Source of the DNA: Candidatus Solibacter sp.
Lineage (GTDB): Bacteria; Acidobacteriota; Terriglobia; Bryobacterales; Bryobacteraceae
NCBI GenBank assembly: GCA_025358475.1
Contig: JANYJN010000228.1
Coordinates: 1-42,038 of the forward strand
Reading direction: 5' to 3'
Length of the DNA stretch: 42,038 bases
In this document: piece after piece, positions 6,472-41,169 of the stretch
How positions within the stretch are numbered: the first letter of the stretch is position 1
Layout of the letters: each line of letters opens with the position of its first letter
Position numbers and translations under genes: made by a program
Notes under the pieces: model-generated
Databases searched by the model: none
The model's input: the letters and a program-made list of their open reading frames with translations, nothing else
Told to the model about the DNA's origin: nothing

Positions 6472-6484
6472 TCTCAATGTTAAG

Positions 6485-6495
6485 ATATCAGATAT
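6485..6495 (-). promoter_or_regulatory. Perfect ATATCaGATAT palindrome / extended -10-like element in front of the larA-like operon
   Basis: The minus strand reads GATAATATCTGATATCTTAACATTGAGAATG, so TG-n-TATCTT ends 10 nt before ATG 6471. Confidence 0.45.
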
Positions 6496-6587
6496 TATCA
6501 TCCGTGACAATACCCCAAAATCCGGCAATTCGGTATTTCCAGACCAAAAATTGTGGGTGTGGATCAAACCAGGCATAAACGATCCTG

Positions 6588-6601
6588 GTATCTGATATGC
6601 T
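6588..6601 (+). promoter_or_regulatory. GTATCtGATAT motif / extended -10-like element (TG-a-TATGCT) in front of the MFS operon
   Basis: GGTATCTGATATGCTATACGACATG: the -10-like hexamer at 6596-6601 is followed 7 nt later by ATG 6609, which is compatible with a leaderless or very short-leader transcript. Confidence 0.45.
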
Positions 6602-28268: not shown

Positions 28269-28286
28269 TTACAATCCTCCAGAAAA

Positions 28287-29684
28287 TCAAACCAGCGCGC
28301 GACGGCTAGCGCTATAGGCCGCGGCGGCTTTCGCGACGCCATCCGCCCAGGCCGGCACACCCAGCGCGTGTATGTGTGTGTAACTGGCCCAGACATTACC
28401 CGCTAACGCGCCATCGCGGCCTTTAAAACATCCGGCACCGCGCTCCACGGAGCATGCGGTGGGCGGCGGATCGCAGCCCGCCACGACCCGGGAATAGTGA
28501 AATTCGTGTCCCTTAATCTCCAGGCCCACCGGATAAAACGGGTTCGGCCGGTCCACTTTCAACCGCACATAGCCGTGGCCCTGAGGCGAGGGGCACATTT
28601 CCACTTCGAACGGCAGCACGCCCGACATCGGATGCGAGCGCCCGCCACTCCGTATGGCCCGCGACAGCAACATCAGCCCGCCGCATTCGGCATAAATGGG
28701 CAAACCCCGAGCCGCCCCGTCATTCAGCGCCCGCAGGAATGGGGCATTGCCAGAGAGCGCGTCCACGTGCGTTTCCGGGAATCCGCCGCCGATGTAGAGC
28801 GCGTCCAGTTCCCCCGGTAGATCCTGCGCCGTCAGCGAATCAATGGGCGCGAGCTTGGCTCCGGCCGCTTCCAGCGCCTCCAGGTTTTCAGGATAATAAA
28901 ACGTAAAAACGCGGTCCTTGATGTAGCCGACCGTCAGATTGCGCGGCTTAGTTCCGGCGCCCATGACGTTATCGCGGACCATCATGTTGGCGGAACGCGC
29001 GCAAGCGAGGATTCCCTCAAGGTCCAGGCAATCCCCGACGCCTGTGAGCAACTGCTCCCCTAGCGCGCCGGCCGAGGGATGATCGCCGGGAGTCACGAGC
29101 CCCAGGTGCCGCCCCGGCATCAGGCAGGTGCGCAGCCTGGGCACCGAGCCGAGTACCGGAATGCCGCAGATCTGTTCGATGGACTCGCGCAGGATGCGCT
29201 CCTGGCGCGCCGTCCCCACCTCATTCAGGATGACTCCCGCGAACCGCACGTCCGGATCTAGTCTCTGGCAACCCAATGCGCAAGCCGCCACCGTCCTCGT
29301 GGCCTTGGTCGCATTGATCACCAGGAGCACCGGTGCGTCGATCGCCTTGGCAAGTTCCGCCGTGCTGTGGGTGCCCCGTACGTCGGTGCCATCGAACACG
29401 CCGCGGTTCCCTTCGATGACATTCAGTCCGTCCACGCAGCCATGCGCCGCGAACGATGCTGCCGCGCCATCGAAACCCATCAGGTAAGTATCCAGGTTTC
29501 GCGCGGTATGCCCCGATGCCCAAGCCAGCCACGCGGTGTCGATGTAGTCCGGCCCTTTCTTGAAGGCACGCACGGCGACCCCGGCACGCCGGGCAGCCAA
29601 AGCCAGACCAAGAGATACAAGCGTCTTGCCTGCGTCTCCGGCCAGCCCGGCCACCACCACCCTGGGAATCGAAACCGATTGCAT
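28287..29684 (-). CDS. dsrN: Cobyrinic acid a,c-diamide synthase-type amidase, DsrN
   Basis: Start set at ATG 29684 (MQSVSIPRVVVAGLAGDAGKTLVSLGL, the nucleotide-binding loop). It has KKGPDYID and a C-terminal glutamine amidotransferase domain with YAECGGLMLL. It lies within the dsr locus. Confidence 0.8.
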   Translation of the reverse strand: MQSVSIPRVVVAGLAGDAGKTLVSLGLALAARRAGVAVRAFKKGPDYIDTAWLAWASGHTARNLDTYLMGFDGAAASFAAHGCVDGLNVIEGNRGVFDGTDVRGTHSTAELAKAIDAPVLLVINATKATRTVAACALGCQRLDPDVRFAGVILNEVGTARQERILRESIEQICGIPVLGSVPRLRTCLMPGRHLGLVTPGDHPSAGALGEQLLTGVGDCLDLEGILACARSANMMVRDNVMGAGTKPRNLTVGYIKDRVFTFYYPENLEALEAAGAKLAPIDSLTAQDLPGELDALYIGGGFPETHVDALSGNAPFLRALNDGAARGLPIYAECGGLMLLSRAIRSGGRSHPMSGVLPFEVEMCPSPQGHGYVRLKVDRPNPFYPVGLEIKGHEFHYSRVVAGCDPPPTACSVERGAGCFKGRDGALAGNVWASYTHIHALGVPAWADGVAKAAAAYSASRRALV

Positions 29685-29700
29685 CGCTGGGCCAAAAGCT

Positions 29701-29913
29701 CTATTCCGGAGCCGCTCCTTCTTTGTGCGGCAGCTCCACGTAAGAGCCGCCGAAATAACTGTACACGCACCGTTCTGCGTCGATGAGCAGGCGCAGCGCC
29801 TGCTTGCAGTCGTCCTTCGTGCACGTGGCACCGTGTTTGACGATCATGGCTTTCGTTAGATCGCCCGCCTTGAGATTCTTCTTCCCCGCGGATTCCGCGA
29901 CCAACTTATACAT
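29701..29913 (-). CDS. dsrD: Small DsrD-like winged-helix protein (70 aa)
   Basis: KQALRLLIDAERCVYSYFGGSYVEL parallels Desulfovibrio DsrD KKILTALVNDEVLEYWSSGSTTMYGL. The size and dsr context fit. This rests on similarity recalled from memory, not a search. Confidence 0.5.
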   Translation of the reverse strand: MYKLVAESAGKKNLKAGDLTKAMIVKHGATCTKDDCKQALRLLIDAERCVYSYFGGSYVELPHKEGAAPE

Positions 29914-29944: not shown

Positions 29945-31159
29945 CTAATGGGACACCTCCAATAAGTTCTTATCTACAGCCCGCAGAGGGGCTGCCCTGC
30001 CGGCCAAGCCACCCCGGACCAATATCGCAAGCTTAATCAACACCGTCGCGACAAGCGCACCAAGGGCCCAGATTCCGGCGGCAATCGCTATCTCCGGAGC
30101 AGTTGGAGCGTACCCGGTCACGGCGCCCATTGGCGATGGCACGAAGCCGCCCACCACCATCGCCACTCCCTTGTCGATCCAAAGCGAGACGAAGACGAAA
30201 ACGCAGGCCAATGCCAACGTCCGATGATTCTCCCTGGTCGCCGGCCGGAGTAAAAGCACCAGCGAGAGAATCGCCAGGCCGGCCGAAACCCACATCCACG
30301 GCACCAGTGAGAAGTGGCCATCCAGCCCCAGATAGAGATAGCGGAAATGCTCCGCGTCCCCGGGTATGCCGCTGTAGAGAGCGGTGAAAAGTTCCAGTAG
30401 GACGAAGAACACGTTCAGGAGCATGGCGTAAGTTGCGATCACGGCCAGCTTCCGTACGGCTTCCCCGCCCGCCTTGACGTGGGTCAGTTTGCTCAGCAGC
30501 AGCCAGAGCAGAATCAGAAGCGCGGGTCCGGAGGCAAACGCCGAAGCGAGAAACCGCGGCGCGAGGATCGCCGTCAGCCAGAAAGACCTGCCCGGCAGCC
30601 CGCAATACAGAAACGCCGTCACCGTGTGGATGCTCACCGCCCACGGAATCGACAGCAGGATCAGGGAACGGATCCATGTGGGTGGAGGAAGCTCCCTGCG
30701 CTCCGCAGCCAGCGTCACGGAGGCGATGATGGTGTTCAACAGGAGGTAGATGCTGAGCGAAACCATGTCCCAGAACATCATCGACTGGGGCGCCGGATGC
30801 AGCATCACGTTCAAAACCCGGGCCGGTTGGCCCATGTCTGCGAAGATGAACAGCATGCACATGAGCACGGCCGAGATGGCCACGAACTCGCCGAGTATCA
30901 ACATGGGCCCAAAGGCCTTATAGTCGTGCAGGTAGTACGGCAGGACCACCATTACGGCCGAAGCGGCGATGCCCACCGTGAAAGTGAACTGCGCGATGTA
31001 GAGTCCCCAGGTGATGTCGCGGCTCATACCAGTGACCGCCAGGCCATAGTCCAGTTGGCGTAGATAGCAGGCAAATCCGGTCGCGATCACTGCCGCCAGG
31101 CAAAGCAACCAGATCCGGTACGCCCGTCCGCCCGACACTGTTTTTTCCAGTCGCAACAT
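29945..31159 (-). CDS. dsrP: DsrP, NrfD/PsrC-type integral membrane quinone-interacting subunit
   Basis: About ten TMS, the NrfD-like block GLAVTGMSRDITWGLYIAQFTFTVG, and a position after dsrO. Confidence 0.85.
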   Translation of the reverse strand: MLRLEKTVSGGRAYRIWLLCLAAVIATGFACYLRQLDYGLAVTGMSRDITWGLYIAQFTFTVGIAASAVMVVLPYYLHDYKAFGPMLILGEFVAISAVLMCMLFIFADMGQPARVLNVMLHPAPQSMMFWDMVSLSIYLLLNTIIASVTLAAERRELPPPTWIRSLILLSIPWAVSIHTVTAFLYCGLPGRSFWLTAILAPRFLASAFASGPALLILLWLLLSKLTHVKAGGEAVRKLAVIATYAMLLNVFFVLLELFTALYSGIPGDAEHFRYLYLGLDGHFSLVPWMWVSAGLAILSLVLLLRPATRENHRTLALACVFVFVSLWIDKGVAMVVGGFVPSPMGAVTGYAPTAPEIAIAAGIWALGALVATVLIKLAILVRGGLAGRAAPLRAVDKNLLEVSH

Positions 31160-31168
31160 ACCATTGCC

Positions 31169-31888
31169 TCAGAGGATGTAGAATACCGACGGCCGTGTGC
31201 CGAGCTCGGTCCGCCGCCGCAGGCCGTAGCGCGCACTGAGCAGGGTGCGGATTTCCGAACGCGGATCGTTCAGGTCGCCGAAAATCAGCGCCTTTTCCGG
31301 GCACGCCTCGCTGCACAGGGGCGCCTTACCCACATCCAGCCGCTCCACGCAGAACGTACACTTCTCCACCACACCCTTCGTGCGGCAGGGATACGCGGCA
31401 TTGACGGAACGGATGTGCGGCCTCGGATCGCTCCAATTAAAACTTCGCGAACCGTAAGGGCAGGCTGCCATGCAGTAACGGCAGCCGATGCACCGGTGCC
31501 AGTCCATCATCACGATTCCATCCGGCCGCTTGAATGTAGCGCCGGTCGGGCACACCCGCGTGCAAGGCGGGTTTTCGCAATGATTACACATCACCGGTCC
31601 GGACGCATTCTCGAGCCTGGCGGGAAGATATTCGGAGGGGAACACCTTGGAAAAGCGCTCTTTCCAGACCCACTTCACTTCGCGCCGGGCATCCGGAATT
31701 GTGGGAACGTTATGCGTCAAATGGCAGGCGTCGGTACACAACGTGCATCCTTCGTCCTTCGCGCAATTGCGGTGGTCGATCGCCATTCCCCAGCGCGGTC
31801 CGTTAGGCTTGGATCTGGCTCCCTTGGCCGCCAGCGCCACGAACGGCAAGGCCGCGAATTTGACAAAAGTCTTTCTCGAAATGTTCAT
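31169..31888 (-). CDS. dsrO: DsrO, Tat-exported 4x[4Fe-4S] ferredoxin-like subunit
   Basis: ATG 31888 overlaps the dsrJ stop (ATGA). Signal MNISRKTFVKFAALPFVALAA; cluster motifs CNHCENPPCTRVCP, CIGCRYCMAACP and CTFCVERL...CSEACP. Confidence 0.85.
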   Translation of the reverse strand: MNISRKTFVKFAALPFVALAAKGARSKPNGPRWGMAIDHRNCAKDEGCTLCTDACHLTHNVPTIPDARREVKWVWKERFSKVFPSEYLPARLENASGPVMCNHCENPPCTRVCPTGATFKRPDGIVMMDWHRCIGCRYCMAACPYGSRSFNWSDPRPHIRSVNAAYPCRTKGVVEKCTFCVERLDVGKAPLCSEACPEKALIFGDLNDPRSEIRTLLSARYGLRRRTELGTRPSVFYIL

Positions 31889-32283
31889 CGCGCAGTCCTC
31901 ACGGCGTTTCCGGGCGAGTTGTGACAATCCCAGCAGTAGGCCGCCCGCACTCCCACGTAAGAGTGGCAGCGGTCGCAGAATTTCGCCCGGTCTTGATGGC
32001 ACTGGGACAGGCACGTGCCCGTCAGGCTGATGTCATAGGTCTTACCGCCGGGGCTGGTATAGCGGCGGACTCCCGTGCGCACCACCTGGTCTCTCCAGGA
32101 GTCCAGCATGCGCATGTGATACGCCTTCATGTACTTGACAGGCGCCACGCATTGCTTGCCGGGCGGCAATTGGAGCGCCGGCCTGGCAGCGGCTCTTAGG
32201 GTAGCCGCGTTGTACCAGAAAGGAAAGCTGGCGATCACGAGGAACACCGCCAGACCCGCGAGAATGATTGGCTGGTCACGCAC
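31885..32283 (-). CDS. dsrJ: DsrJ, membrane-anchored periplasmic triheme cytochrome c
   Basis: N-terminal anchor IILAGLAVFLVIASF and three heme-c motifs: CLSQCH (CX3CH), CDRCH and CWDCH. GTG start at 32283 overlaps the dsrK stop by 8 nt. Confidence 0.85.
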   Translation of the reverse strand: MRDQPIILAGLAVFLVIASFPFWYNAATLRAAARPALQLPPGKQCVAPVKYMKAYHMRMLDSWRDQVVRTGVRRYTSPGGKTYDISLTGTCLSQCHQDRAKFCDRCHSYVGVRAAYCWDCHNSPGNAVRTAR

Positions 32284-33889
32284 CTGCCTGCTCCGTTTGC
32301 GGCGCGAAAGGCTGTCCGCGAAGATCGGTAGTGCGTTCCTTCTCTCCGCTCATCACCAGCGCGTTGCCCAGCAGTTCGTGGACGCCGGCCACTTCCACGC
32401 CGGGCACCCAGTATTCCAGCAGCGTGGGAAGCGTCGCCTTGTCGATCGCGCAGATGCAGGAAAGTAGGTTGACGCCGAATTTCTCCTTCACGTACTTCAC
32501 CGCGTTTGCTCTTGGGAAGCCGCCGCGCATGCGCATCTCGAAGTTTTCGTCGGTCCCAATTCCAGAGCCGCTGCCGCAGCAGAAGGTCTGCTCGCGGATC
32601 GTGTTCTCCGGCATTTCGTGAAACCGGTCGCAGACATTCCGGATGATGTAGCGAGGCTCTTCCAACATGCCCATCGCCCGCGCCGGGTTGCAGGAGTCGT
32701 GGTAAGTGACGTTCCAATGCGCGTTGCGGGCCGGGTCCAGCTTTAGCTTGCCGTGCCGGATCAGGTCCGCCGTGAATTCGCAGATGTGGACCATCTTCGT
32801 GGACCGCGCGTTGTCGAACGCCGTGCCCGTGACCGGGGAAACCGGAGGCTGCAGAAAATCCGCCGGACCGTTCATCGTATCCATATACTGGTTCACGACG
32901 CGCCACATATGTCCGCATTCGCCGCCCAGTATCCACTTGACGCCAAGCCGGCGGGCCTCGCTGTACATCTTCGCGTTCAGCCGCTTCATCATCTCATTGG
33001 AGGTGAACAGCCCGAAATTGCCTCCTTCGGATGCATAGGCGCTGAAGGTGTAGTCGAGCCCCACTTCATGGAACAGCATGAGGTACCCGAGCAGCGTGTA
33101 GTAGTGCGGGGAGCCGAAGTAATCGGCCGACGGAACGACGAATAGGACCTCGGCGCCCTTCTTGTTGATGGGCGCTTCCACGCGGACGCCGATCATCTCC
33201 TCAATCTCGTCCACCGCGAAGTCGATGCTGTCCTTAAACCCGTGCGGTTGGATCCCGAGGTGATTGCCCACGCGGTAGCAGTTGGCCACCGGTTCCTGCA
33301 CCCAATGGATGTTGCAGCCCACCAGGTTCAGAAGTTCGCGTACGATCATGGTGATTTCGGCGGTATCGATTCCGAAGGGGCAGAACACCGAACAGCGGCG
33401 GCACTCGGTGCACTGGTAGAAGTAGTAGAACCACTCCTTCAGCACGTCCTCGGTCAAGTCCCGCGCGCCGGCCAATTTCCCGAGTATCTTACCGGCGGCG
33501 GTGAAGTAGCGCCGGTAGACGGAGCGGATCAGTTCCGCCCGCAGCACCGGCATGTTCTTGGGATCGCCGGAGCCGATGTAGAAGTGGCACTTGTCCGCGC
33601 AGGCGCCGCATCGCACGCAGATATCCATGAACAGGCGGAAGGAGCGGAAGCGCTCCAAGCGGTCCCGCATGCCCTCCAGAACGATCTCTTTCCAATCGGG
33701 CGGCAGTTTCCAATCGGCGTCGGAGGGCTTCCAATTGCGCGCGTTGGGCATCCCCACCTGATCCAGGCTCTTCGGCAGCGCGCTATTGCAATAGGCGCCC
33801 TTCCGATAATTGGCGCTCGGCTCGAGCCAACTCCCCGAAGGAGGCGTGTTGTCGATCTGAACCAGTTCGTCCGGCTTTGGCCACGCCAT
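32276..33889 (-). CDS. dsrK: DsrK, cytoplasmic CCG-domain (HdrD-like) iron-sulfur subunit
   Basis: CVRCGACADKC, CTECRRCSVFCP, HDSCNPARAMG and TFCCGSGSGIG. Confidence 0.9.
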   Translation of the reverse strand: MAWPKPDELVQIDNTPPSGSWLEPSANYRKGAYCNSALPKSLDQVGMPNARNWKPSDADWKLPPDWKEIVLEGMRDRLERFRSFRLFMDICVRCGACADKCHFYIGSGDPKNMPVLRAELIRSVYRRYFTAAGKILGKLAGARDLTEDVLKEWFYYFYQCTECRRCSVFCPFGIDTAEITMIVRELLNLVGCNIHWVQEPVANCYRVGNHLGIQPHGFKDSIDFAVDEIEEMIGVRVEAPINKKGAEVLFVVPSADYFGSPHYYTLLGYLMLFHEVGLDYTFSAYASEGGNFGLFTSNEMMKRLNAKMYSEARRLGVKWILGGECGHMWRVVNQYMDTMNGPADFLQPPVSPVTGTAFDNARSTKMVHICEFTADLIRHGKLKLDPARNAHWNVTYHDSCNPARAMGMLEEPRYIIRNVCDRFHEMPENTIREQTFCCGSGSGIGTDENFEMRMRGGFPRANAVKYVKEKFGVNLLSCICAIDKATLPTLLEYWVPGVEVAGVHELLGNALVMSGEKERTTDLRGQPFAPQTEQAGA

Positions 33890-33891
33890 GG

Positions 33892-34815
33892 TTATTGCTT
33901 CTCCAGCGGGATTCCGGCGGTTCTCATCTTATCTCGAAACTCGTCTTCGAACTGTTCGTAAGTGTGTAACTCGACGGCCGGATTCCACGGGTTCACATGC
34001 CGCTTCATGCGGCTGTTATTGGCCAGATTCCGGGTGGGGCTCAGGAAACTTCCGCCCATGTGCATCAGCTTGCTGAACGGGAACCAGGCGAGCAGTAAGC
34101 TGAGCGTCGCCACGTGAAAGTAAAAAAGCGCGCCCGCATCGGACGGCAGCGCCGGCGACATGGTTGCCAGCCCCAGCGCGTACCGTTTTATTTCCACGAT
34201 GTTCACGCGCGCGAAATAGCGCATGAGGATTCCCGAGCCGGCCAGCGCGAGCAGCAACCCCAGCGCGAAGTAATCGCTGGGAAGCGAGAGATAGCGCAAT
34301 TGCGCTTGCGCCAGCCGCCTGCCTAGCAGGTAAAGCAGCGCAACCAACAGAATCGCGTCCGTCGCGTAGACCACCGGCATTCCGGCCTGGAAAAACCCAT
34401 CCAGCGACTGCAGCGCCAACACCCATCTGGGGGTTGGTTGCAGGAAAAGGCGAAGATGGCGCAGCAGCACGATCAGAAAAGACCAGTGAAACGCCAGCGC
34501 ACCCAACCAAAGCCAGCCGGAGGGTGAGTAGACCAGGCGGGAACCCAGCCGCTCCGGCCGGTGATTGCGCAGCAGCGAACGAAATACCAGCACTTCCGAA
34601 GCCACGCGCGCCACGGCGCCGGCGGTTGTGTAGGGGTTCTCCAGCCAGGAAGCTTTAATCCAAGGCAACGACTTCTGCTGACCGCAGGTGGTGGGAATGC
34701 GGAATGGAACCGGCGCGCGGGACCAACTCAGCACGCGGTAGCCGATGCCCACAAAAAACGCCAGCAAGGCCGCGTAGGGAAGGCCGACCGCAAGAATCAT
34801 GCGCAGTTCCATCAT
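33892..34815 (-). CDS. dsrM: DsrM, NarI-like membrane diheme cytochrome b
   Basis: TMS with paired His (AFHWSFLIVLLRHLRLF and a second set near FYFHVATLS...KLMHMGG). ATG 34815 overlaps the dsrT stop (ATGA). Confidence 0.85.
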   Translation of the reverse strand: MMELRMILAVGLPYAALLAFFVGIGYRVLSWSRAPVPFRIPTTCGQQKSLPWIKASWLENPYTTAGAVARVASEVLVFRSLLRNHRPERLGSRLVYSPSGWLWLGALAFHWSFLIVLLRHLRLFLQPTPRWVLALQSLDGFFQAGMPVVYATDAILLVALLYLLGRRLAQAQLRYLSLPSDYFALGLLLALAGSGILMRYFARVNIVEIKRYALGLATMSPALPSDAGALFYFHVATLSLLLAWFPFSKLMHMGGSFLSPTRNLANNSRMKRHVNPWNPAVELHTYEQFEDEFRDKMRTAGIPLEKQ

Positions 34816-35297
34816 GATTTGGACATTCTTTCGAGCAGAAACCTCCGCCGGCGGGCTTCATTCACCCGCAGCGTCAACAGTCTCTCGCGGCATTGCGTGA
34901 AGGCGTCAAAGGCCATCAGCGCCAGTTGATCGATCTTATTCTCGTGATCGATCCTGCGCTCATTGCAGCCGGACCGCTCTTGTAGCAGCGGCTTCAGCAG
35001 GAACACGAACGATACGGCTTGGGAGGCCGAAGACTCCTGAACCGCCCGGATGCTGAGCAAGTCGTCCAGCACCTGCCGGGCCGTGTCGCATTCGGCCTCG
35101 CCGAGAGCCACGTCCAGCAGCACGGGGAGTCCTTCGCGAAGCGCGTAGCCCACCGGATTAAGGAACCTGTCTTCCCGGCCGAGCAGAACCTGGGCCGTCG
35201 GCTCGGGATACATTTGCACGGTGCGCTCCAGCCAGGCGCTACAGATGGCGCGCTTGTCCTCAACCGGAACGATGTCTTTAGGCCGGGAAACTGCCAC
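34812..35297 (-). CDS. dsrT: DsrT (RsbRD N-terminal-domain protein of dsr loci)
   Basis: AWLERTVQMYPEPTAQVLLGREDRFLNPVGYALREGLPVLLD matches the RsbRD_N/DsrT pattern. GTG start at 35297 is preceded by AAGGAG. Confidence 0.7.
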   Translation of the reverse strand: MAVSRPKDIVPVEDKRAICSAWLERTVQMYPEPTAQVLLGREDRFLNPVGYALREGLPVLLDVALGEAECDTARQVLDDLLSIRAVQESSASQAVSFVFLLKPLLQERSGCNERRIDHENKIDQLALMAFDAFTQCRERLLTLRVNEARRRRFLLERMSKS

Positions 35298-35307
35298 GAC
35301 TACTCCT

Positions 35308-35625
35308 TTACACGCAGCCCGTGGGCTTGGGGAGTCCAGCCAGTTTGCATGCGCCCTTGGCTGGACCCGAAGGGAAGAGTCCGTAGATCTCGTTCAGCTT
35401 GAACCCGGTTTCCTTGCAAACCTTGCGGACCATGGGCGCGATGCCGAATCCCAAGTAATAATTCCGGAGGTAATTGATCACCTTCCAGTGATCCGGCGTC
35501 AGATCCGTGATGTCTTCGCTCTGCGCAAAATCCTTGGCAACGGCTTCGTTCCAGATCTCCGGATTTTCCAAAAAGCCATCTTCGTCCACCTCATAAACCG
35601 TTCCGTTTGCTTCGAATGTCGGCAC
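35308..35625 (-). CDS. dsrC: DsrC (TusE/DsrC family) with both redox-active C-terminal cysteines
   Basis: HWKVINYLRNYY, and the C-terminus GACKLAGLPKPTGCV (Cys-X10-Cys with a penultimate Cys). GTG start at 35625 is preceded by AGAGGAG. Confidence 0.9.
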   Translation of the reverse strand: MPTFEANGTVYEVDEDGFLENPEIWNEAVAKDFAQSEDITDLTPDHWKVINYLRNYYLGFGIAPMVRKVCKETGFKLNEIYGLFPSGPAKGACKLAGLPKPTGCV

Positions 35626-35661: not shown

Positions 35662-36708
35662 TCAGGCCAAGTCGATATAACCGCTCGGGCAGCCGTCGGT
35701 GCATTTGCCGCACCCGTTACATTGGTCCAAATTAATCCGGTAGCGTCGGCCCGATGGAACTTTTTCAAATCCATGCTTCGTGCAGTACATCCAGCAGTTC
35801 CCACAACCCATGCACATACCGCAAGACATGCAGCGCTTGGACTCAGCCACAGCATCGGCCGCAATCATTGCGGCCGCCGCGGCGTAACGGGGCTGCTCTT
35901 TGTACCACTCCAGCCGCAACCGCTCTTTCGGGGCTGACAGCTTCGGCGCCGGCTTTTGCCCGGCAACACCGCGAATCCGGGCGTCAGCCTCTTCGGCCGC
36001 CAGAAGACCGCTGGCAATAACCGATGCGATCGCGGAAGCATCCGGCGTTTCCATGCTCGCCGTCTCGATCACTGCGCCATAGGCGGCGCGGAGTCCCTCC
36101 ACGTCGATGCCGCCGCAGTCGCACTTCAGTTCCACTCCGAGGTCCAGAATCCTCCGGATCTCGGAGTCCAGGATTTCATCCAGCAAATTCTGCCGCATGA
36201 TGCCGCCGGACTGCGGGGAACTTTCGAAAATTGTGACTTTGTATCCGCGCTTTACCAAGTGGAAGGCCGCGGTGAGCCCCGCCAGACCCGCGCCTACCAC
36301 CGCCACCGAAGTAGGCAACTCTTTCGTCCGGCCGAACTTAAGCGCGTGCTCGATCGCGTAGTCGCCGACGAAACGCTCCACCGCGTTCACCGCTACCGCT
36401 CCTTCCTTCAGGCTCCGGTGGCAGTTGTCCTCGCACGGATGCGAGCACAGCCTGCCGCACGCGGACGGAAACGGATTGCGGGCGGTGATCCTCCGCCACG
36501 CAAACTCTGCGGCCTGCTCCGCCGTCCGGCCTTCCACTTCGGCGTCTGCGATGGTGGCGAGCATTCCGCGCACGTCGCATCCGATGGGACAACCGGCCGC
36601 GCAGGGAGCGGTTTTCGGCGTGTAATGCGGCCGCAAGGGACTCGATTGGTTTTCCGTCGAACCCATCTGGCGGATCAAAGGCTTCTTGACCGTCTTAAAT
36701 AACGCCAT
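35662..36708 (-). CDS. dsrL: Shortened DsrL-like (GltD/NfnB-type) iron-sulfur flavoprotein that appears to lack the NAD(P)H-binding domain, with a C-terminal 2x[4Fe-4S] ferredoxin domain
   Basis: N-terminal Fe-S motifs CAAGCPIGC and PFPSACGRLCSHPCEDNC; FAD fold VAVVGAGLAGLTAAFHLVKRGYKVTIFESSPQSGG; C-terminal CMSCGMCMGCGNC and CNGCGKCTDGCP. It is only 348 aa and sits between dsrB and dsrC. Confidence 0.65.
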   Translation of the reverse strand: MALFKTVKKPLIRQMGSTENQSSPLRPHYTPKTAPCAAGCPIGCDVRGMLATIADAEVEGRTAEQAAEFAWRRITARNPFPSACGRLCSHPCEDNCHRSLKEGAVAVNAVERFVGDYAIEHALKFGRTKELPTSVAVVGAGLAGLTAAFHLVKRGYKVTIFESSPQSGGIMRQNLLDEILDSEIRRILDLGVELKCDCGGIDVEGLRAAYGAVIETASMETPDASAIASVIASGLLAAEEADARIRGVAGQKPAPKLSAPKERLRLEWYKEQPRYAAAAAMIAADAVAESKRCMSCGMCMGCGNCWMYCTKHGFEKVPSGRRYRINLDQCNGCGKCTDGCPSGYIDLA

Positions 36709-36715
36709 AGTACGG

Positions 36716-37798
36716 CTAATACCTTATATGTGTGGACCGCGCGTACGTCAAACCGGCATGCTTGAAATCGTCGAGATGGTAGCGCGTAAACTCAATCCCG
36801 GTCAGCTCGAAGAACCTGGGCCAGCCGATCCGGTCGATCCACTCGCCCATGCGCTCGAACTTCTTGGCGCCGCCGGCGTAGACCTCCACGATGTTGGCCA
36901 CTGCATCCACTACTTCAGGCCAGCGCGGCGGATTGTTGGGCAAGAACGGAATCGCCAGCTTCGAGAACTTCGGAGCCGTACGGGCATTGCTTACCTTGCC
37001 GCCTACGTAGATCGATAACCCGTCGTTTTCCGGATCGTCCAGCGGCATCGCGGGCGAAACCGTGTAGCAGTTTCCGCAGTACATGCACTTCTCGTCAATC
37101 ACGGTCACGGATTCCTTGCCCCCCACCACCGCGGGCCGGATCGCGTCCGTGGGACACGCGGCAATGACGGTGGGAATCTCGCTGACCTTTTTCAAAATAT
37201 CGTGATTGATTTTTGGCGGCTTGCGGTGAATGCCCAGGATGGCGATGTCCGAACAGTGAACGGCCCCGCACATATTCAGGCAGCAAGCCACGGCAATTCG
37301 CACACGCGCCGGCAGAGTTTCTTCGGTGAACCGGGAATAGAGCCGGTCCATCAGCGATTTCACGAGCCCCGAAGCGTCGGTCGCCGCCGAGTGGCAATGA
37401 ATCCAACCCTGGGTATGCACTATGTTACTGATGGATGCGCCCGTGCCCCCCACCGGGAACCCGGCGTCGAAAAGTTCCTTCCGGAGCGGTTCGATGTTGG
37501 CTGGATCCTCCAGCAGGAACTCGATGTTGTTTCGGCTGGTGAACCGCAGATAACCACCGCAATACTTATCCGCGAGCGCCGCGAATAAGCGGATGGTGTC
37601 CACGCTCAACAGGCGCGGCGAGCCGGCGCGAACCGTATAGAGCCGTTCGCCCGATTCAGAGACATGGCACAGCACCCCCGGAGCGATTCCTTCGTGATAC
37701 TGCCATTTCCCGTAATTCCTCTTGATCACCGGGGGGAGAAACTTTTCATAATTGGGCGGTCCGATATCTGTAATTCTTTTTGCTGTTTCGGTTGCCAT
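36716..37798 (-). CDS. dsrB: Dissimilatory sulfite reductase beta subunit
   Basis: Start at ATG 37798, 1 nt after the dsrA stop ([32 protein letters not shown]). [32 protein letters not shown], and a ferredoxin insert CPTDAI...CMYCGNC. Confidence 0.9.
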
Positions 37799-37799
37799 G

Positions 37800-38996
37800 T
37801 TAGTTTGCCTCCTCTTCCCGGAAAAAGATGAACGGGTTGTCGCGAGGCGCCGCCACCATCTCGGGTGTGGGATCCAAACCGATACCATCCAAAAAATTCG
37901 CGAGCCCGACGCGCTGGATCAGTTCGCCGATGCGCTCCCGGTTCTCGCCGTGCTCGTCCCAGAAATCCCACAAGCGCTTGAGCAACTCATTCACGGTCCC
38001 TTCCAGTTCTTCGGCCGCCACGAATGGCACCAGCACGCTCGAAAGCAGCGCGCCCTTGACGATGGGTGCCTTGGCTCCGATCAGAAGCACCGCGCCGCGC
38101 TCCTTGCCGGGCCGGAGCGCCTTGGGCATCACGTTGATGCAATGCATGCAGCGTACGCACTCGCGGTTCTCGATGGTCAACTTGCCATTGTCCCAGTCCA
38201 TGCATCGCGTCGGGCAACGGTCGCAGACATCCCTCCGGATATCGAGGCCAGCGGCGGCATATTCGGCCACCGCGGCGTCGTCCTGCCGGATGGCATCTTT
38301 CCAGGTGCCGATGATGGACAGGTCCGCCCGCGCGCTGGCCGCCACGCAGTCATTAGGACAGCCAGAACATTTGATCTTAAATTTGTACGGAAAAGCGGGC
38401 CGGTGCATCTCGTCCTGGTACTGGTGCGTCAGGTCGTTGCACAGTTTCATCGTGTCGTAGCACGCCCATTCGCAGCGCGCCTGGCCGACACAGGAAGAGG
38501 GGGTTCGAAGCGCGGAGCCCGACCCGCCAAGGTCGAATCCGGCCTGCGTTAGTTCATTGAACGTCGGCTCCAGTTCCGTCGTGTTCGTGCCCAGGAAAAT
38601 GATGTCGCCGGTCGAACCGTGAAAGTTGGTCAGCCCTGAGCCATGCCGCTCCCAAATATCCGCTAGCGTCCGGAGAGCGTCACTGGTGTAGAACCAGCCC
38701 GATGGGTGGTTGACACGGATCGTGTGGAAGTGGGCGATCCGGGGAAACTGCTCCGGCATCGCGCTATACCGGCCGATGACGCCGCCACCGTACCCACGAA
38801 CGCCCACCATACCGCCGTGTTTCCAGTGGCCTCTCTTCTCCTCGTAAGACGACTCGAGTTGTTGCAGGAGGTCATTGCAAGCGGGGTTCTTCTCGCCCGC
38901 CTTTTTGATTTCGGTGACAAAACTGGGCCAGGGACCCTCTTCAAGTTGATCGAGTAGTTTGGTTGGGCGTCTCTCGTCGTCAGGCATTGGTTGCAT
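37800..38996 (-). CDS. dsrA: Dissimilatory sulfite reductase alpha subunit
   Basis: [32 protein letters not shown], siroheme/[4Fe-4S] motifs [13 protein letters not shown] and KCSGCPNDC, and the ferredoxin domain CDRCPTRC...CVRCMHC. ATG 38996, or ATG 38987 three codons further in. Confidence 0.92.
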
Positions 38997-39100: not shown

Positions 39101-40222
39101 CTACACGGCAGGAAAGTCCTTGCCGGTGACTATACGGTCCTCGCGGATGCTGATGTCGGCGCCGTAGGCCAGCTTGGAAGGCTCTAGCGCCGCTTCCGGA
39201 CTGAGCGGGGACTGCTTCCGGTCATGCACATTCTGGAAAAATTCGCGGTACATCTGCACTTCCGGACCGCCTTCGCCCTCGTCGCTGAACTTCACCGGTT
39301 CCAAAGCCTTATCCAGAGAGCCCACCAGGAGTTTGCCGCCCTCGCGCCGGATCACACCCTTGTCGCCGATGATCAGCAGTTTGCCGCCCGCCGACCGCGA
39401 GAAGCATGTAAAGGAGTAGTTCATCCGCCCGCCATTGGCGAAGTCCGCCAGAATCGAGGAGACGTCACGTGTGTCCCGATCCTTGTAGTGCATCACTCCG
39501 CCCGATGCGGACAGCCGCACCATGGGAGAGTTCACGATAGAGGTCACCATGCTCAGCGCATGGATGGAAAATTCAAGTTCGCTCGATCCGGACGTCTGCG
39601 CGAGCAGCCGCCAACTCACCTTCTGACCCGTCTTCGGATCGGTCACCTTGGAAGTCTGCGGATTCCAATCGTTGCGGTATTCCTCATAATTGATAAACCG
39701 CACGGGCCCGATCGTGCCGCTTTCGACGATCTTCCGGATCTCCGAGTCGCCCTTGGAGTAGCGCCGCTGCATTCCCACGCACACCACTTTCCCGGACTTG
39801 CGGGACTCCCGGATGATATCCGCCGCTTCCTTGTAGTTCAGCGCGAGCGGCTTTTCGAGCATCACATCCTTGCCGGCGCGCAGAGCCGCAATCGCCATCT
39901 CGTGGTGCATGTAGCCGGGGGTAATGATCGCTACCGCGCCGACGCTCTTGTCATTGAGCAGTTCCCGGTAATCGGTGTACATGGCCGGCTTGGAGGGCAG
40001 CGCGCCGGCCGCCTTCGCCATGCGGGCCGATTCGAGGTCGCAGAGCGCCACCACATTTGATTCGCTCTGAAGTTGCGTCAGCGCTTTGAGATGAGCGCCG
40101 GACCTCAACCCCACTCCAATGATTCCGAGATTCACGGAACCCGCCTGCGCGTTCGCCGCCGTCGTGCCCAGCGCGGCCAAGCCAACCGCCATCATCTGCC
40201 TGCGCGAAATATCTTCTTTCAT
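39101..40222 (-). CDS. Tat-exported Gfo/Idh/MocA-family oxidoreductase (second copy)
   Basis: AAGGAG RBS; twin-arginine signal MKEDISRRQMMAVGLAALGTTAANAQA; LGIIGVGLRSGAHL; LEKPLA. Confidence 0.85.
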   Translation of the reverse strand: MKEDISRRQMMAVGLAALGTTAANAQAGSVNLGIIGVGLRSGAHLKALTQLQSESNVVALCDLESARMAKAAGALPSKPAMYTDYRELLNDKSVGAVAIITPGYMHHEMAIAALRAGKDVMLEKPLALNYKEAADIIRESRKSGKVVCVGMQRRYSKGDSEIRKIVESGTIGPVRFINYEEYRNDWNPQTSKVTDPKTGQKVSWRLLAQTSGSSELEFSIHALSMVTSIVNSPMVRLSASGGVMHYKDRDTRDVSSILADFANGGRMNYSFTCFSRSAGGKLLIIGDKGVIRREGGKLLVGSLDKALEPVKFSDEGEGGPEVQMYREFFQNVHDRKQSPLSPEAALEPSKLAYGADISIREDRIVTGKDFPAV

Positions 40223-40320
40223 GCCATCTCCTTATGTGCTCAGTTGATTCTTCATATAGCCCCGAGCGGGCATTTGGATGCGGCCCGAATCGGCAAATGC
40301 ATCCTGCCCCGCTAATTCGC

Positions 40321-41169
40321 TTATGCGAACTGGCGGCGGATGAACGCGATATTCTTCTTGGTCGCCTCGACGCACTTCTCGGGTCCGGAGTGTGTGCTCT
40401 CGAAGACCACCCAGCCCTGGTACCCGATCCCGCGTATCGCTTTGAAGGCGGCGATCCAATTTACGCGGCCGGGCTCTTCGAGCAGCGACTCCTCGTTTTT
40501 GACGTGGATCTGGGCGATGCGGGATTTCCCGAGCACCTCGTATCCGGGGACGCTCTCGTCTTTGTGGCCGAAGCGTTCGGCGTTGTCGGCGTCGTAATAC
40601 ACCTTGACAGAAGGTTTAGCCACTAAGTCGATCAGCTTCTTGTCGTCGGCGGGACTCAGCGAGGTCTCCATGCCCAGCGTCACGCCGGCATCGGCCGCGG
40701 CTTCCGCCACTTTCCGCAGCATGGTAACCACCGGCCCGTAAGAGTCCTCCTGATCCATGATGGGGCAGTTCTTCTGGAACGCGGCGACCAGGATCACCTT
40801 GGCATTCAGGGCTTCCGCCGCCTGGATCGACTTCCGGAGCGTCTCTTCCGCGGGGCCGGGTTGCACCAGCGAAGCCCCTGCTGCCCAGACACCGGCGAGG
40901 GATGGGATCAGAAGTCCCGCATCCGCGGCGCCGCGCTTATACGTGAGCAGCGTATCGCGGTCCCACAGCGTCGTCTTTTGAAACTGAACCTGAAGCTCGA
41001 CGCCGGTGATGCCCGGAATGCGGCGCGCGATCTCGAACACCCCCGGTCCCGGCTCCTTCGTCATGTTGGCCTGCCGGTGTCCGATCTTTAGGGGCGCCGT
41101 CTCGGCTTTCAGCATGGCGGCCAGGGCGGCGGAACAGGAGGTGATACCGAACTGCCTGCGGGTGAGCAT
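40321..41169 (-). CDS. Exported sugar-phosphate isomerase/epimerase (xylose-isomerase-like TIM barrel), third copy
   Basis: Signal MLTRRQFGITSCSAALAAMLKA; blocks LGMETS, YYDADNAERFGH, IHVKN and YQGWVVFES. Confidence 0.75.
   Translation of the reverse strand: MLTRRQFGITSCSAALAAMLKAETAPLKIGHRQANMTKEPGPGVFEIARRIPGITGVELQVQFQKTTLWDRDTLLTYKRGAADAGLLIPSLAGVWAAGASLVQPGPAEETLRKSIQAAEALNAKVILVAAFQKNCPIMDQEDSYGPVVTMLRKVAEAAADAGVTLGMETSLSPADDKKLIDLVAKPSVKVYYDADNAERFGHKDESVPGYEVLGKSRIAQIHVKNEESLLEEPGRVNWIAAFKAIRGIGYQGWVVFESTHSGPEKCVEATKKNIAFIRRQFA

Follow-up and report, generated by a model that had tools for sequence, protein, structure and literature searches.

Mini-DsrL, a DsrL-like protein lacking the NAD(P)H-binding domain, encoded between dsrB and dsrC in soil Acidobacteria

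The gene located between dsrB and dsrC in the window (the whole stretch of 42,038 nucleotides that was analysed) encodes a 348-amino acid protein, hereafter named mini-DsrL, which has lost the NAD(P)H-binding domain of DsrL. The explanation that we favour, with a confidence somewhat above even, is that mini-DsrL represents a derived DsrL-2 acting as an NAD(P)H-independent Fe-S electron-transfer partner of DsrAB, in which FAD is perhaps retained. From its sequence, hydride transfer from NAD(P)H is predicted to be no longer possible in this protein, and these soil Acidobacteria probably feed their sulfite reductase from an electron source other than NAD(P)H. A distinct module in which the Fe-S clusters, and perhaps FAD, are retained but NAD(P)H cannot be used directly was one of the two possibilities raised in the initial annotation, and it is the one favoured by the evidence. 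Mini-DsrL falls outside the published domain definition of DsrL and no description of it was found in the literature. A search of Loffler 2020, Diao 2023, Hausmann 2018, Flieder 2021, Dyksma 2023 and the 2024 ISME J paper on Dsr-mediated sulfur oxidation revealed no truncated or shorter form of DsrL, the sole remark there being that the 553-aa acidobacterial DsrL is shorter than that of A. vinosum and has the same domains.

Gene, operon and domain architecture of mini-DsrL

The mini-DsrL gene (348 aa plus the stop codon; 35662–36708) was delimited as an ORF starting with ATG and by comparison with its homologues. Its extent and its place between dsrB and dsrC had been correctly given in the initial annotation, to which the strand (minus) is now added; the plus-strand frame of the same interval was translated and rejected as a gene. 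All the genes described below are also encoded on the minus strand. Mini-DsrL is preceded by dsrA (37800–38996; TIGR02064, E 4e-174) and dsrB (36716–37798; TIGR02066, E 1e-152), with 7 nt between the dsrB stop codon and the mini-DsrL ATG. The mechanical ORF of dsrB extends to 37888, and its likely start is M31, which gives a protein of 360 aa, coincident with the size of its homologues. On the other side, 36 nt separate the mini-DsrL stop codon from the GTG of dsrC (35308–35625; PF04358, E 4e-37), which is followed by a dsrT-like gene with an RsbRD_N domain (34812–35297; Pfam domain and synteny). The dsrMKJOP block (29945–34815) comprises dsrM (33892–34815), dsrK (32276–33889), dsrJ (31885–32283), dsrO (31169–32014, start uncertain) and dsrP (29945–31159), which were assigned by Pfam and by a gene order and families coincident with those of loci L001, L004 and L008. 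A second block (25756–29687), arranged as in L001 and L008, contains dsrN (about 28287–29687) and additional copies of dsrM and dsrK, namely dsrM2 (27360–28268) and dsrK2 (25756–27363). Immediately upstream of dsrN lies a 70-aa DsrD-like ORF (29701–29913), and dsrD-dsrN pairs have been reported (Hausmann 2018). Homologues with 83–85% identity to this ORF occupy the equivalent place in L001, L004 and L008, and ORFs with 54–68% identity were located by tblastn directly after dsrB in L084 and L095. As a DsrD it gave neither a Pfam match at E ≤ 0.01 nor a PDB match, and its label derives from synteny and from the tblastn matches to the ORFs found after dsrB elsewhere.

The cluster, dinucleotide-fold and ferredoxin motifs quoted in the initial annotation are all present in the protein, in which CAAGCPIGC (aa 36–44), PFPSACGRLCSHPCEDNC (aa 79–96), VAVVGAGLAGLTAAFHLVKRGYKVTIFESSPQSGG (aa 135–169), LRAAYGAVIETASMETPDASAIASVIASGLLAAEEADARIRG (aa 206–247), CMSCGMCMGCGNC (aa 293–305) and CNGCGKCTDGCP (aa 330–341) were located. 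The N-terminal NfnB/GltD-type domain (aa 22–125; 36334–36645) was recognised by Fer4_20 (aa 32–121, E 1.6e-13) and by ligand mapping according to Loffler 2020 (PMC7596348), which places the ligand positions of a distal [4Fe-4S] cluster at S23, R26, C36 and C96, and those of a proximal one at C40, C88, C92 and E111. The remnant of an FAD-binding Rossmann domain (aa 126–250; 35959–36333), defined by Pfam, alignments and the AF2 model, contains beta1-GAGLAG-helix-beta2-E162, G168, G169, R172 and two helices, followed by strands 193–195 and 212–215 and by the final helix 224–246. Pyr_redox_2 matched aa 134–178 only, which correspond to the first beta-alpha-beta unit (26.5 bits, cut-off 26.1), and no second Rossmann match was obtained with Pfam. 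The profile search found Fer4_20 but no intact NAD(P)H-binding Rossmann domain. A linker with a conserved W268-Y269 pair (aa 251–290; 35839–35958), delimited by the alignment and by dN/dS, precedes the C-terminal ferredoxin domain (aa 291–348; 35665–35838). The latter was matched by Pfam as a 4Fe-4S dicluster domain (Fer4_7/Fer4_9, aa 298–346) and provides two [4Fe-4S] sites with ten conserved Cys (C293, C296, C299, C302, C305, C309, C330, C333, C336 and C340). In the AF2 model, pLDDT values were 88–98 for most of aa 40–250, with strand 212–215 passing into helix 224–246, and about 81–97 over the N-terminal two-cluster domain; the C-terminal ferredoxin domain was modelled with low confidence (about 50). 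The NCBIfam model PRK12771 (566 positions) aligned in two stretches, the best one covering model positions 33–228, and scored 243 bits against a cut-off of 516, whereas the gltA/gltD models gave 63–101 bits (cut-offs 448–483). Hence, mini-DsrL has no above-cut-off match across both dinucleotide-binding domains of the kind that defines the GltD/NfnB family.

Alignment of mini-DsrL with the acidobacterial DsrL-2 (about 553 aa) revealed one gap of about 205 residues, which together with the missing second Rossmann match bears out the earlier claim that the NAD(P)H-binding domain has been lost. The gap takes out the whole NAD(P)H Rossmann domain with GGGDTAID and YRR, and likewise the FAD-domain strands that come after it, among them the one before AGGD, and the GG of the GGD motif. 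Six residues are all that align to the roughly 187-residue NAD(P)H-domain region, and the linker is 14 residues shorter than in the 553-aa DsrL-2. At the deletion scar AVIETASMETPDASA (aa 212–226; 36031–36075), identified in the alignments, the strand equivalent to AVFVG(IGA) leads through a degenerate GGD remnant (S-M-E) into the last FAD-domain helix. The family alignments agree in this respect with the initial annotation, which had described the sequence as running straight into that helix. Its failure to find a GG(D) motif holds for the GG, but a degenerate (A/S/G)-L/M-E remnant survives in the short forms. One phmmer alignment, which paired aa 221–248 with the beginning of the NAD(P)H domain of NfnB, was discarded as spurious; in the family alignments this stretch is the last FAD-domain helix.

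Distribution and selective constraint of the short form

At least 35 diverged relatives of mini-DsrL (308–365 aa, 45–82% identity) share its junction. Database entries account for 33 of them (50–82% identity, 100% query coverage) and two more were obtained from genomes; the NCBI name of the short forms is 'FAD-dependent oxidoreductase' only. In NJ distance trees (built with numpy, with simple bootstraps and no outgroup, and not by ML), the forms of up to 370 aa grouped in one clan in 200 of 200 bootstraps, with a mean distance of 0.57 within this clan versus 0.31 among the retrieved long forms. The short architecture recurs at the dsrB-dsrC junction of related genomes (L001, L004, L007, L008, L014 and L015), where the order dsrA-dsrB-L-dsrC-dsrT-dsrM-dsrK was observed, and the same order was found in loci with a full-length DsrL (L016, L018, L088 and L091). 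Short and full-length DsrL share, therefore, one dsrAB-L-C-T-MKJOP slot, which is a case of positional orthology. Comparison from dsrA to dsrP with the full-length-DsrL Bryobacteraceae operon L091 revealed no operon gene specific to the short form.

The other possibility raised in the initial annotation was an artefact or a non-functional deletion. A collapsed assembly, an isolated in-frame deletion or a pseudogene in decay would fit the unusual architecture and the score below the NCBIfam cut-off, and nothing else among our results. This explanation, to which we assign a negligible probability, is refuted by the diversified clan, the synteny, the independent assemblies and the purifying selection. 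The identical protein was found on 4 contigs, and the short form is present on the complete 7.36-Mb Bryobacteraceae chromosome OY764903.1 and in both short-read and long-read contigs, in JGI, ENA, NCBI and Logan assemblies. A systematic collapse shared by all these assemblies is implausible at 45–82% identity, and AF2 modelled the junction with confidence. With an overall dN/dS of 0.14–0.26, mini-DsrL is under purifying selection.

The lowest dN/dS values were those of the Fe-S domains (0.05–0.15; 0.05–0.12 for the C-terminal ferredoxin domain); the FAD remnant showed 0.13–0.28, and constraint was weakest in the linker, with 0.30–0.65. Among the 35 short forms, each of the 18 Fe-S ligand positions is 91–100% conserved, and the ten Cys of the C-terminal ferredoxin domain reach 97–100%. 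R26, which corresponds to the Arg typical of the DsrL-2 proteins that accompany reductive DsrAB (Loffler 2020, PMC7596348), is invariant among the short forms. These data bear on whether mini-DsrL might have no redox function and be retained only for binding, as a DsrAB subunit with a structural or regulatory role similar to that of DsrD. A changed role would be consistent with the absence of the domain for catalytic input, and clan-specific substitutions (D301G/A, E303G, H322R and N97H) occur in both ferredoxin domains. However, ligands that have stayed conserved across a divergence of about 0.57 substitutions per site, and a dN/dS that is lowest in the Fe-S domains, argue that the clusters themselves are needed, and the operon already has a DsrD-like gene, so that we consider a non-redox subunit very improbable.

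At least four other dsr-linked lineages have lost the NAD(P)H domain too; they are represented by the 396-aa Terriglobales/Acidobacteriaceae forms (L011–L013, P0107), P0134 (394 aa), P0127 (379 aa) and P0140 (395 aa). This domain is likewise absent from P0193 (416 aa), which is flanked by PFOR/VOR subunits (2-oxoacid:ferredoxin oxidoreductase) and not by dsr genes. All of them resemble mini-DsrL in having Fer4_20, one Rossmann remnant and a two-[4Fe-4S] ferredoxin C-terminus, with no NAD(P)H Rossmann domain and no YRR, but their deletion boundaries differ from that of mini-DsrL, and P0134 and P0193, unlike it, still have the arginine that contacts the flavin and the strand with GGD (or GGK). 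The 396-aa clan joined that of mini-DsrL in only 10 of 200 NJ bootstraps, their origins being separate on the tree, and about 21 NAD(P)H-less clades were counted overall in the NJ tree without an outgroup. These other DsrL-like proteins apparently are also undescribed.

The flavin site and the path of electrons

In T. maritima NfnB, Arg187 hydrogen-bonds the flavin N5, and one side of the isoalloxazine pocket is normally closed off by the NAD(P)H domain (PMC6405883). The equivalent of Arg187 sits in the YGIPxYRLP loop, and this arginine is replaced or deleted in every short form; the YRR motif, whose region is deleted, is absent from all of them. In addition, the GG of GGD and the residues R235 and F236 of the last helix, which are at least 95% conserved in 83 long forms, are replaced in the short clan. 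Judging from these alignments, the isoalloxazine pocket of mini-DsrL is dismantled, including the flavin-N5 arginine. As for the ADP-binding side, the motifs G139, G141, G144, E162 and G168-G169, together with the acidic position 220, are 74–100% conserved versus a domain background of 62%, which suggests that the flavin site is not simply vestigial. Within the clan, G141 is present in 100% of the members, G139 and G144 in 89–91%, G168-G169 in 80% and E162 in 77% (86% as E or D). At position 220, E is found in 74% and D in 17%, so that 91% of the members have an acidic residue there.

Mini-DsrL could, consequently, still be a working flavoprotein, in which FAD would be held at the ADP-binding site and its exposed isoalloxazine would dock a new partner or donor, the two-electron input being split by FAD into one-electron steps that reach DsrAB via the clusters. 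Apart from the conservation of the ADP-binding side, this is supported by R172 (R in 25 of 33 members), by the dN/dS of the remnant and by the members without E162 (gap, G or Q), in which G168-G169 is also deleted or altered, except in P0029, which is the pattern that selection for FAD binding in the rest of the clan would produce. Moreover, in the dsr-linked P0134 the NAD(P)H domain has been cleanly excised, and GGD, the SRLP arginine and NGRR are all retained. The dismantling of the pocket, with the loss of the wall formed by the NAD(P)H domain, argues against a working flavin. So do seven of the 35 members, which lack E162, the G168-G169 pair or both and yet keep nearly all the Fe-S ligand positions; the smallest short forms also lose the remaining FAD motifs. 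On balance, we regard a working flavoprotein as rather unlikely.

It might also be thought that NAD(P)H dependence is preserved in trans, a separate NAD(P)H-domain protein or a full-length DsrL/NfnB-like paralogue complementing mini-DsrL in the manner of a split gene. DsrL-1 is encoded by two genes in one MAG (Diao 2023), and the missing segment is an inserted domain, which in principle could be supplied separately. Against this, a stand-alone NAD(P)H-domain gene was not found in the 42-kb window or in the conserved short-form operons, and OY764903.1 and four other reduced-form genomes contained one DsrL-like locus each among the best 80 matches. A separate domain would also find no complete flavin site at which to dock, because mini-DsrL has lost the returning strands of the FAD domain and the loop that contacts the flavin. 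A full-length dsrL may lie elsewhere in the same genome, outside the 42-kb window, but complementation in trans is on the whole improbable.

The preferred reading remains that of an NAD(P)H-independent Fe-S partner of DsrAB. Mini-DsrL, which probably belongs to a Bryobacteraceae relative, would be a derived form of the DsrL-2 found in reductive-type Acidobacteria, produced by an ancestral single internal deletion that removed the NAD(P)H Rossmann domain and the following FAD-domain strands; the flavin loop and the linker would have been trimmed further, either together with the main deletion or later. The product would hold four [4Fe-4S] sites (two NfnB-type at the N-terminus and two ferredoxin-type at the C-terminus) joined by the compact FAD-domain remnant. 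It may dock on DsrAB like full-length DsrL, an interaction proposed solely from its homology to DsrL and its gene position, and may serve as an iron-sulfur relay between DsrAB and another carrier, such as ferredoxin or other redox protein. The domain loss, the conservation of the protein and of its Fe-S ligands, the synteny and the purifying selection are observations, and the binding to DsrAB, the direction of electron flow, the donor and the FAD status are inferences. FAD or an ADP-containing ligand may still bind to mini-DsrL, with a structural or auxiliary role. Since the N-terminal chain of clusters now stops at the flavin remnant and no longer leads to an NAD(P)H site, electrons would have no obvious point of entry into a pure Fe-S wire. 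The repeated loss of the NAD(P)H domain, in the Bryobacteraceae clan and in at least four other dsr-linked lineages, raises the tentative possibility that the indispensable role of DsrL is that of an Fe-S adaptor to DsrAB, for which NAD(P)H would be one interchangeable input, and that mini-DsrL is a new functional type.

DsrL, DsrD and DsrEFH are used as genomic markers for the reductive versus oxidative direction of the Dsr pathway, and the proposal that NADPH supplies electrons for sulfite reduction in Acidobacteria and in other recently recognised sulfite/sulfate reducers rests on DsrL. A DsrL unable to bind NAD(P)H would break this marker-based inference for the whole peat/soil Bryobacteraceae clan. 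Because the short forms score below the curated HMM cut-offs and lie outside the published criteria, surveys would classify their hosts as DsrL-lacking or as NADPH-linked, both of which would be incorrect. The full-length proteins, those with a clean excision that keep FAD, those with an eroded flavin pocket and those without FAD motifs form a natural series, which points to both Fe-S domains as the indispensable parts of DsrL and makes mini-DsrL a minimal construct for studying electron delivery to DsrAB. If the tentative view of DsrL as an Fe-S adaptor with interchangeable inputs is true, mini-DsrL would link the reductive DsrAB of widespread peat/soil Acidobacteria to another donor, e.g. 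ferredoxin or a partner docking on the flavin remnant, and such a donor would be a candidate electron source for DsrAB in DsrL-less sulfate reducers, for which the literature consulted names none.

Comparison with known DsrL and NfnB/GltD-type systems

According to the published criteria, the FAD domain of a DsrL harbours a further Rossmann domain, which binds NAD(P), and the OFOR-linked class is explicitly excluded (Loffler 2020, PMC7596348); P0193 is of that class. Mini-DsrL has the two N-terminal [4Fe-4S] sites with NfnB-type ligands. Of the FAD domain, the first beta-alpha-beta unit (GAGLAG), E162, G168-G169 and the last helix are present, whereas the GG, the strands and the arginine loop are absent, and no second Rossmann domain for NAD(P) is embedded in it. 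The linker and the C-terminal ferredoxin domain are present, although the linker measures only about 45 aa versus about 100 aa. The gene is an intact ORF immediately downstream of dsrAB on the same contig, and its neighbours are dsrB and dsrC, with no linkage to a pyruvate/ketoisovalerate:ferredoxin oxidoreductase.

Mini-DsrL shares the N-terminal two-cluster fold and the first half of the FAD domain with the NfnB/GltD/DPD structures (4YLF, 5JCA, 5VJ7, 2VDC and 1H7W) and with the large subunits of NfnABC/StnABC (9BOV, 9N5U and 8OH5). Structures of the NfnB, GltD and DPD type were matched by Foldseek over about 200 columns only (E 1e-9 to 3e-14, rmsd 2.3–3.1 Å), and by phmmer with E 1e-21 to 6e-28; none of the solved structures has the short architecture. 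The FAD pocket and the NAD(P)H domain are intact in all these enzymes, unlike in mini-DsrL, and NfnB and GltD do not have the C-terminal ferredoxin domain that is present in mini-DsrL.

The initial annotation was right in taking the protein as DsrL-like, but its comparator, the roughly 650-aa DsrL-1A of A. vinosum, had to be replaced with the 553-aa acidobacterial DsrL-2. Mini-DsrL has the Arg at the position of NfnB Cys42, as in DsrL-2, and lacks the YRR motif that denotes NADP(H) preference; its DsrL-2 affiliation relies on its nearest full-length relatives, which are acidobacterial DsrL-2 proteins, including that of Ca. Sulfopaludibacter. DsrL-2C (Diao 2023), e.g. P0117 of Ca. Sulfopaludibacter SbA3 (553 aa), occupies the same dsrAB-L-C-T-MKJOP slot. 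Mini-DsrL and the acidobacterial DsrL-2 are 50–57% identical over their shared parts, they have in common the N-terminal ligands, including S23 and R26, and the two-[4Fe-4S] C-terminal ferredoxin domain, and both co-occur with a DsrD-like gene. DsrL-2 contains, in contrast, the NAD(P)H Rossmann domain with YRR, the FAD strands, the GG, the YGIPxYR loop and the 14 linker residues that are absent in mini-DsrL. The biochemically characterised DsrL-2 is that of Desulfurella amilsii (Loffler 2020, PMC7596348). Having no NAD(P)H domain, mini-DsrL would therefore not work as an NAD(P)H:acceptor oxidoreductase in the manner shown for DaDsrL-2.

Domain structure of mini-DsrL and extent of the deletion

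The mini-DsrL gene lies on the minus strand (35662..36708), starts with ATG and encodes 348 amino acids. All the peptides quoted in the initial annotation were found in this ORF (aa 36-44, 79-96, 135-169, 206-247, 293-305 and 330-341); the plus-strand translation of the same interval was rejected as not being the gene. Pfam searches identified a Fer4_20 domain (aa 32-121), a dinucleotide fold limited to the first beta-alpha-beta unit (aa 134-178), where NAD_binding_8, DAO and similar models all end, and a 4Fe-4S dicluster domain (aa 298-346); Pyr_redox_2 matched only through model positions 2-49 of 291. Among NCBIfam models, PRK12771 (566 positions) matched best: it aligned in two stretches, the better one covering model positions 33-228, and reached 243 bits, the cut-off being 516. 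A homologue is named only 'FAD-dependent oxidoreductase' at NCBI, and JGI uses names such as 'Pyruvate/2-oxoacid:ferredoxin oxidoreductase delta subunit'.

The protein was aligned with full-length acidobacterial DsrL of ~553 aa, including the Ca. Sulfopaludibacter protein (source name DsrL/gltD) and one named 'dissimilatory sulfite reductase flavoprotein subunit' by JGI. A single gap of ~205 residues was observed, at which the AVIET strand (equivalent to AVFVG of AVFVGIGA) continues through ASMETPD into the last helix of the FAD domain, AIASVIASGLLAAEEADARIRG. This gap takes out the Rossmann fold for NAD(P)H (GGGDTAID) together with the YRR motif, the returning FAD strands and the GG of GGD. 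The lack of a second Rossmann motif, proposed initially, is thus borne out both by the Pfam matches and by the alignment. Two smaller deletions removed five residues of the GGMLRYGIPxYRLP loop and 14 linker residues. The former matters for the flavin, because the loop Arg corresponds, through the 4YLF alignment, to Arg187 of T. maritima NfnB, which hydrogen-bonds flavin N5 (PMC6405883); this position is R in 83/83 long forms and never R among the short forms.

An AlphaFold2 model built from a 76-sequence alignment reached a pTM of 0.82, with pLDDT values of ~88-98 over most of aa 40-250, deletion junction included, and low confidence in the C-terminal domain. Foldseek matched this model to NfnB, GltD, DPD and the large subunits of NfnABC/StnABC over ~200 columns only, and retrieved no solved structure with the mini-DsrL architecture. 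The comparison with NfnB and GltD suggested at the outset therefore gives a partial fold match with a confidently modelled junction.

Family, selection and operon context

A protein search yielded 33 complete relatives of 308-365 aa (50-82% identity, 100% coverage), the 553-aa forms ranking next, and the exact window protein was present on 4 contigs. Forms of <=370 aa constituted one clan in 200/200 neighbour-joining (NJ) bootstraps, with a mean within-clan distance of 0.57 substitutions per site (0.31 for the retrieved long forms). The order dsrA-dsrB-short gene-dsrC-dsrT-dsrMKJOP-dsrD-dsrN was kept on contigs of 84, 38, 28 and 20 kb and on the complete 7.36-Mb Bryobacteraceae chromosome OY764903.1, and the short architecture is thus present at the same dsr slot in related genomes, where it was to be sought. 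Full-length DsrL of related Bryobacteraceae and other Acidobacteriota occupies exactly the same slot (contigs L016, L018, L088 and L091), which makes the short gene its positional orthologue. Nei-Gojobori dN/dS values against two orthologues (82% and 72% identical, respectively) were 0.26 and 0.14 for the whole gene, 0.15 and 0.13 for the N-terminal Fe-S domain, 0.12 and 0.05 for the C-terminal ferredoxin domain, 0.28 and 0.135 for the FAD remnant, and 0.65 and 0.30 for the linker.

An assembly artefact or a non-functional deletion had been one of the two explanations offered initially. Assembly errors do occur in this set: on ENA contig L006 (6171-7984), dsrA and dsrB are split into many small ORFs, typical of uncorrected long-read frameshifts, and this assembly is probably long-read. 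Its mini-DsrL is nevertheless intact and identical to that of the independent Logan contig L007. Given the 33 diverged relatives, the conserved synteny, the independent assemblies and whole-gene dN/dS of 0.14-0.26, an artefact or pseudogene is hardly credible; as judged from these sequence comparisons, mini-DsrL is a genuine, long-standing gene family under selection.

The minus-strand dsr operon of the window is complete (dsrA, dsrB, mini-DsrL, dsrC, dsrT-like, dsrM, K, J, O, P, a DsrD-like ORF, dsrN and dsrM2K2). Only 7 nt separate the dsrB stop from the mini-DsrL ATG, and 36 nt, with a strong AGAGGAG Shine-Dalgarno sequence, precede dsrC. The DsrD-like ORF (70 aa, 29701-29913, minus strand, between dsrP and dsrN) had no Pfam DsrD match and no PDB sequence match. 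It shows 83-85% identity to ORFs at the same position in other short-form operons and 54-68% to ORFs directly 3' of dsrB in contigs L084 (Methylomirabilales) and L095, and is probably a divergent DsrD missed by current models. The dsrM2K2 pair (25756-28268, minus strand, downstream of dsrN), consisting of a dsrM-like (Nitrate_red_gam) and a dsrK-like gene (Fer4_8 + CCG), is kept in contigs L001 and L008 and corresponds to the dsrM2K2 reported from peatland Acidobacteria. That the pathway runs reductively is suggested by the DsrD-like gene, by R26, an Arg of the reductive type, and by the acidobacterial context of DsrAB.

The mechanically called ORFs of dsrB (36716-37888), dsrO (31169-32014) and dsrN (28287-29831), all on the minus strand, start upstream of the likely true starts. 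That of dsrB is likely M31 at 37798, one base past the dsrA stop, which gives 360 aa as in homologues, and the dsrN ORF as called overlaps the DsrD-like ORF.

Immediately upstream of dsrA, contig L001, whose mini-DsrL is just 56% identical to that of the window, carries genes for a GFO/IDH/MocA oxidoreductase and a xylose-isomerase-like TIM-barrel protein (5518-7547). Two window ORFs of 373 and 282 aa (39101-41169, minus strand) resemble this pair in size and position; the pair is absent from contigs L004 and L008. It may represent a linked sugar-metabolism module. Positions 1-25700 contain carbohydrate and sugar-acid genes (KduI, transaldolase, aldehyde dehydrogenase, LarA-like, MFS transporter, aldose epimerase, altronate/galactarate dehydratase), GntR and LysR regulators, as well as two outer-membrane beta-barrel proteins of very large size that carry CarboxypepD_reg domains; the window has no tRNA genes. 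This gene content does not contradict an acidobacterial host, to which the matches of DsrA, DsrB and mini-DsrL to Bryobacteraceae MAGs point.

Iron-sulfur ligands, flavin site and other reduced relatives

The 18 predicted Fe-S ligand positions are all 91-100% conserved among the 35 short forms: the distal cluster is assigned S23, R26, C36 and C96, the proximal cluster C40, C88, C92 and E111, and the C-terminal domain ten Cys. A non-redox role has to be set against this retention, and we regard it as very improbable. Cys content otherwise varies across the clan: the extra Cys at aa 44 (CPIGC; window ~36577-36579) is confined within the clan to the window's subgroup, and many members have Thr in place of C84 (AxCGR; ~36457-36459), as does NfnB; both positions lie outside the predicted ligand set.

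The main rival explanation is that FAD is retained as a functional entry point. Conservation of the ADP-binding FAD motifs exceeds the 62% background of the remnant domain without being absolute (G139, 89%; G141, 100%; G144, 91%; E162, 77%, or 86% counting D; G168-G169, 80%; an acidic residue at position 220, 91%), suggesting that the dinucleotide site is under selection in most short forms, including that of the window. Conversely, substitutions run through the whole clan at many positions that the 83 long forms conserve to >=95% (C147A, Q150H, F164S, Y173/R174, F214, G216, G219L, D220E, R235L/M and F236). They cluster mostly round the former isoalloxazine/NAD(P)H interface, and we read the flavin ring environment as dismantled. 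The reduction is graded. A 362-365-aa subgroup (P0011) retains a GVFTACE strand in place of GVFAGGD. The window's type has just S-M-E there, so that the reported absence of GG(D) holds for the GG, although a remnant marks its place. P0059, P0043 and P0039 (308-323 aa) have also lost E162 and the PGG loop, and P0029 (311 aa) the VELKC strand; the smallest members almost certainly no longer bind FAD but keep the clusters. A functional FAD entry point is rather unlikely, and complementation of the NAD(P)H domain in trans, which would make good the ~205-residue loss, is improbable.

Further relatives without the NAD(P)H domain came from the matches listed in a genome scan and from exhaustively searching a set of 1.84 billion representative proteins. 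Forms of ~396 aa from Terriglobales/Acidobacteriaceae MAGs (contigs L011-L013, match at 4001-5194; protein P0107), in the order dsrAB-L-C, made up their own clan in 192/200 bootstraps and joined the window's clan in 10/200. They retain the YRIPR loop and the AVFFA(I/V)(G/S)L strand, have lost GGD and carry ~40 unrelated residues in place of the NAD(P)H domain. In P0134 (394 aa; L095, 6001-7185; dsrM2K2-x-dsrA-dsrB-dsrD-L-dsrN-dsrC-dsrT-MKJO) this domain is cleanly excised and all FAD motifs are kept (GGD, the flavin-contact SRLP arginine and NGRR). P0127 (379 aa, L096) and P0140 (395 aa, L097) are encoded upstream of dsrA, as L-dsrA and L-dsrA-dsrB, respectively. P0055 (433 aa) has a degenerate GEAAMAAD where GGGDTAID stood and seems to have decayed more recently.

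In 43/132 complete relatives, <90 of the ~187 NAD(P)H-region residues were present, and these 43 fall into ~21 separate clades among full-length proteins in a midpoint-rooted NJ tree; as the trees are distance-based and have no outgroup, the number of independent losses is an approximation. At least two losses have direct bootstrap support, and at least five dsr-linked reduced lineages, differing in deletion boundaries and gene orders, are well supported. In at least one of the 43 the same architecture also exists outside dsr operons, since P0193 (416 aa; L094, 484-1734), with Fer4_20, a FAD-domain remnant (VYAGGK), a C-terminal ferredoxin domain and no NAD(P)H Rossmann fold, is flanked by genes for the gamma and the alpha subunit of a pyruvate/ketoisovalerate:ferredoxin oxidoreductase (PFOR/VOR), a class deliberately excluded from DsrL by Loffler et al. 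(PMC7596348).

Proposed electron route and relation to known DsrL proteins

DsrL serves DsrAB as its partner NAD(P)H:acceptor oxidoreductase; in Desulfurella amilsii, DsrL-2 relies on the YRR motif to use NADP(H) (Loffler 2020, PMC7596348), and the electron path in NfnB starts at NADPH and leads via FAD and the proximal and then the distal cluster to ferredoxin (PMC6405883). The hydride-accepting input is physically absent from the deduced mini-DsrL, and direct use of NAD(P)H is therefore excluded. With 18 ligand positions kept and the NAD(P)H fold gone, we favour the second initial explanation, a distinct Fe-S electron-transfer module. Mini-DsrL most likely still binds DsrAB; once bound, it would relay electrons through four [4Fe-4S] clusters independently of NAD(P)H, and these electrons would enter from another carrier (ferredoxin or another partner), at a cluster or at an exposed flavin remnant. 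We lean towards this complete scheme with reserve.

Mini-DsrL is not a categorically new system: it derives from DsrL-2 and sits at the DsrL-2 locus. It differs in lacking both the YRR motif of DsrL-2 and the embedded NAD(P) Rossmann domain that defines DsrL by the criteria of Loffler 2020, and in functional terms it should therefore not be classified as a DsrL. No DsrL without an NAD(P)H domain is described in the main DsrL and acidobacterial sulfur-cycle papers that were searched; the one related remark, in Hausmann 2018, is that the 553-aa forms are shorter than A. vinosum DsrL but share its domains. Mini-DsrL would be of note to sulfur-cycle specialists, since it runs counter to the assumption that the presence of DsrL means coupling to NAD(P)H, and it constitutes a natural minimal construct for the study of electron delivery to DsrAB.
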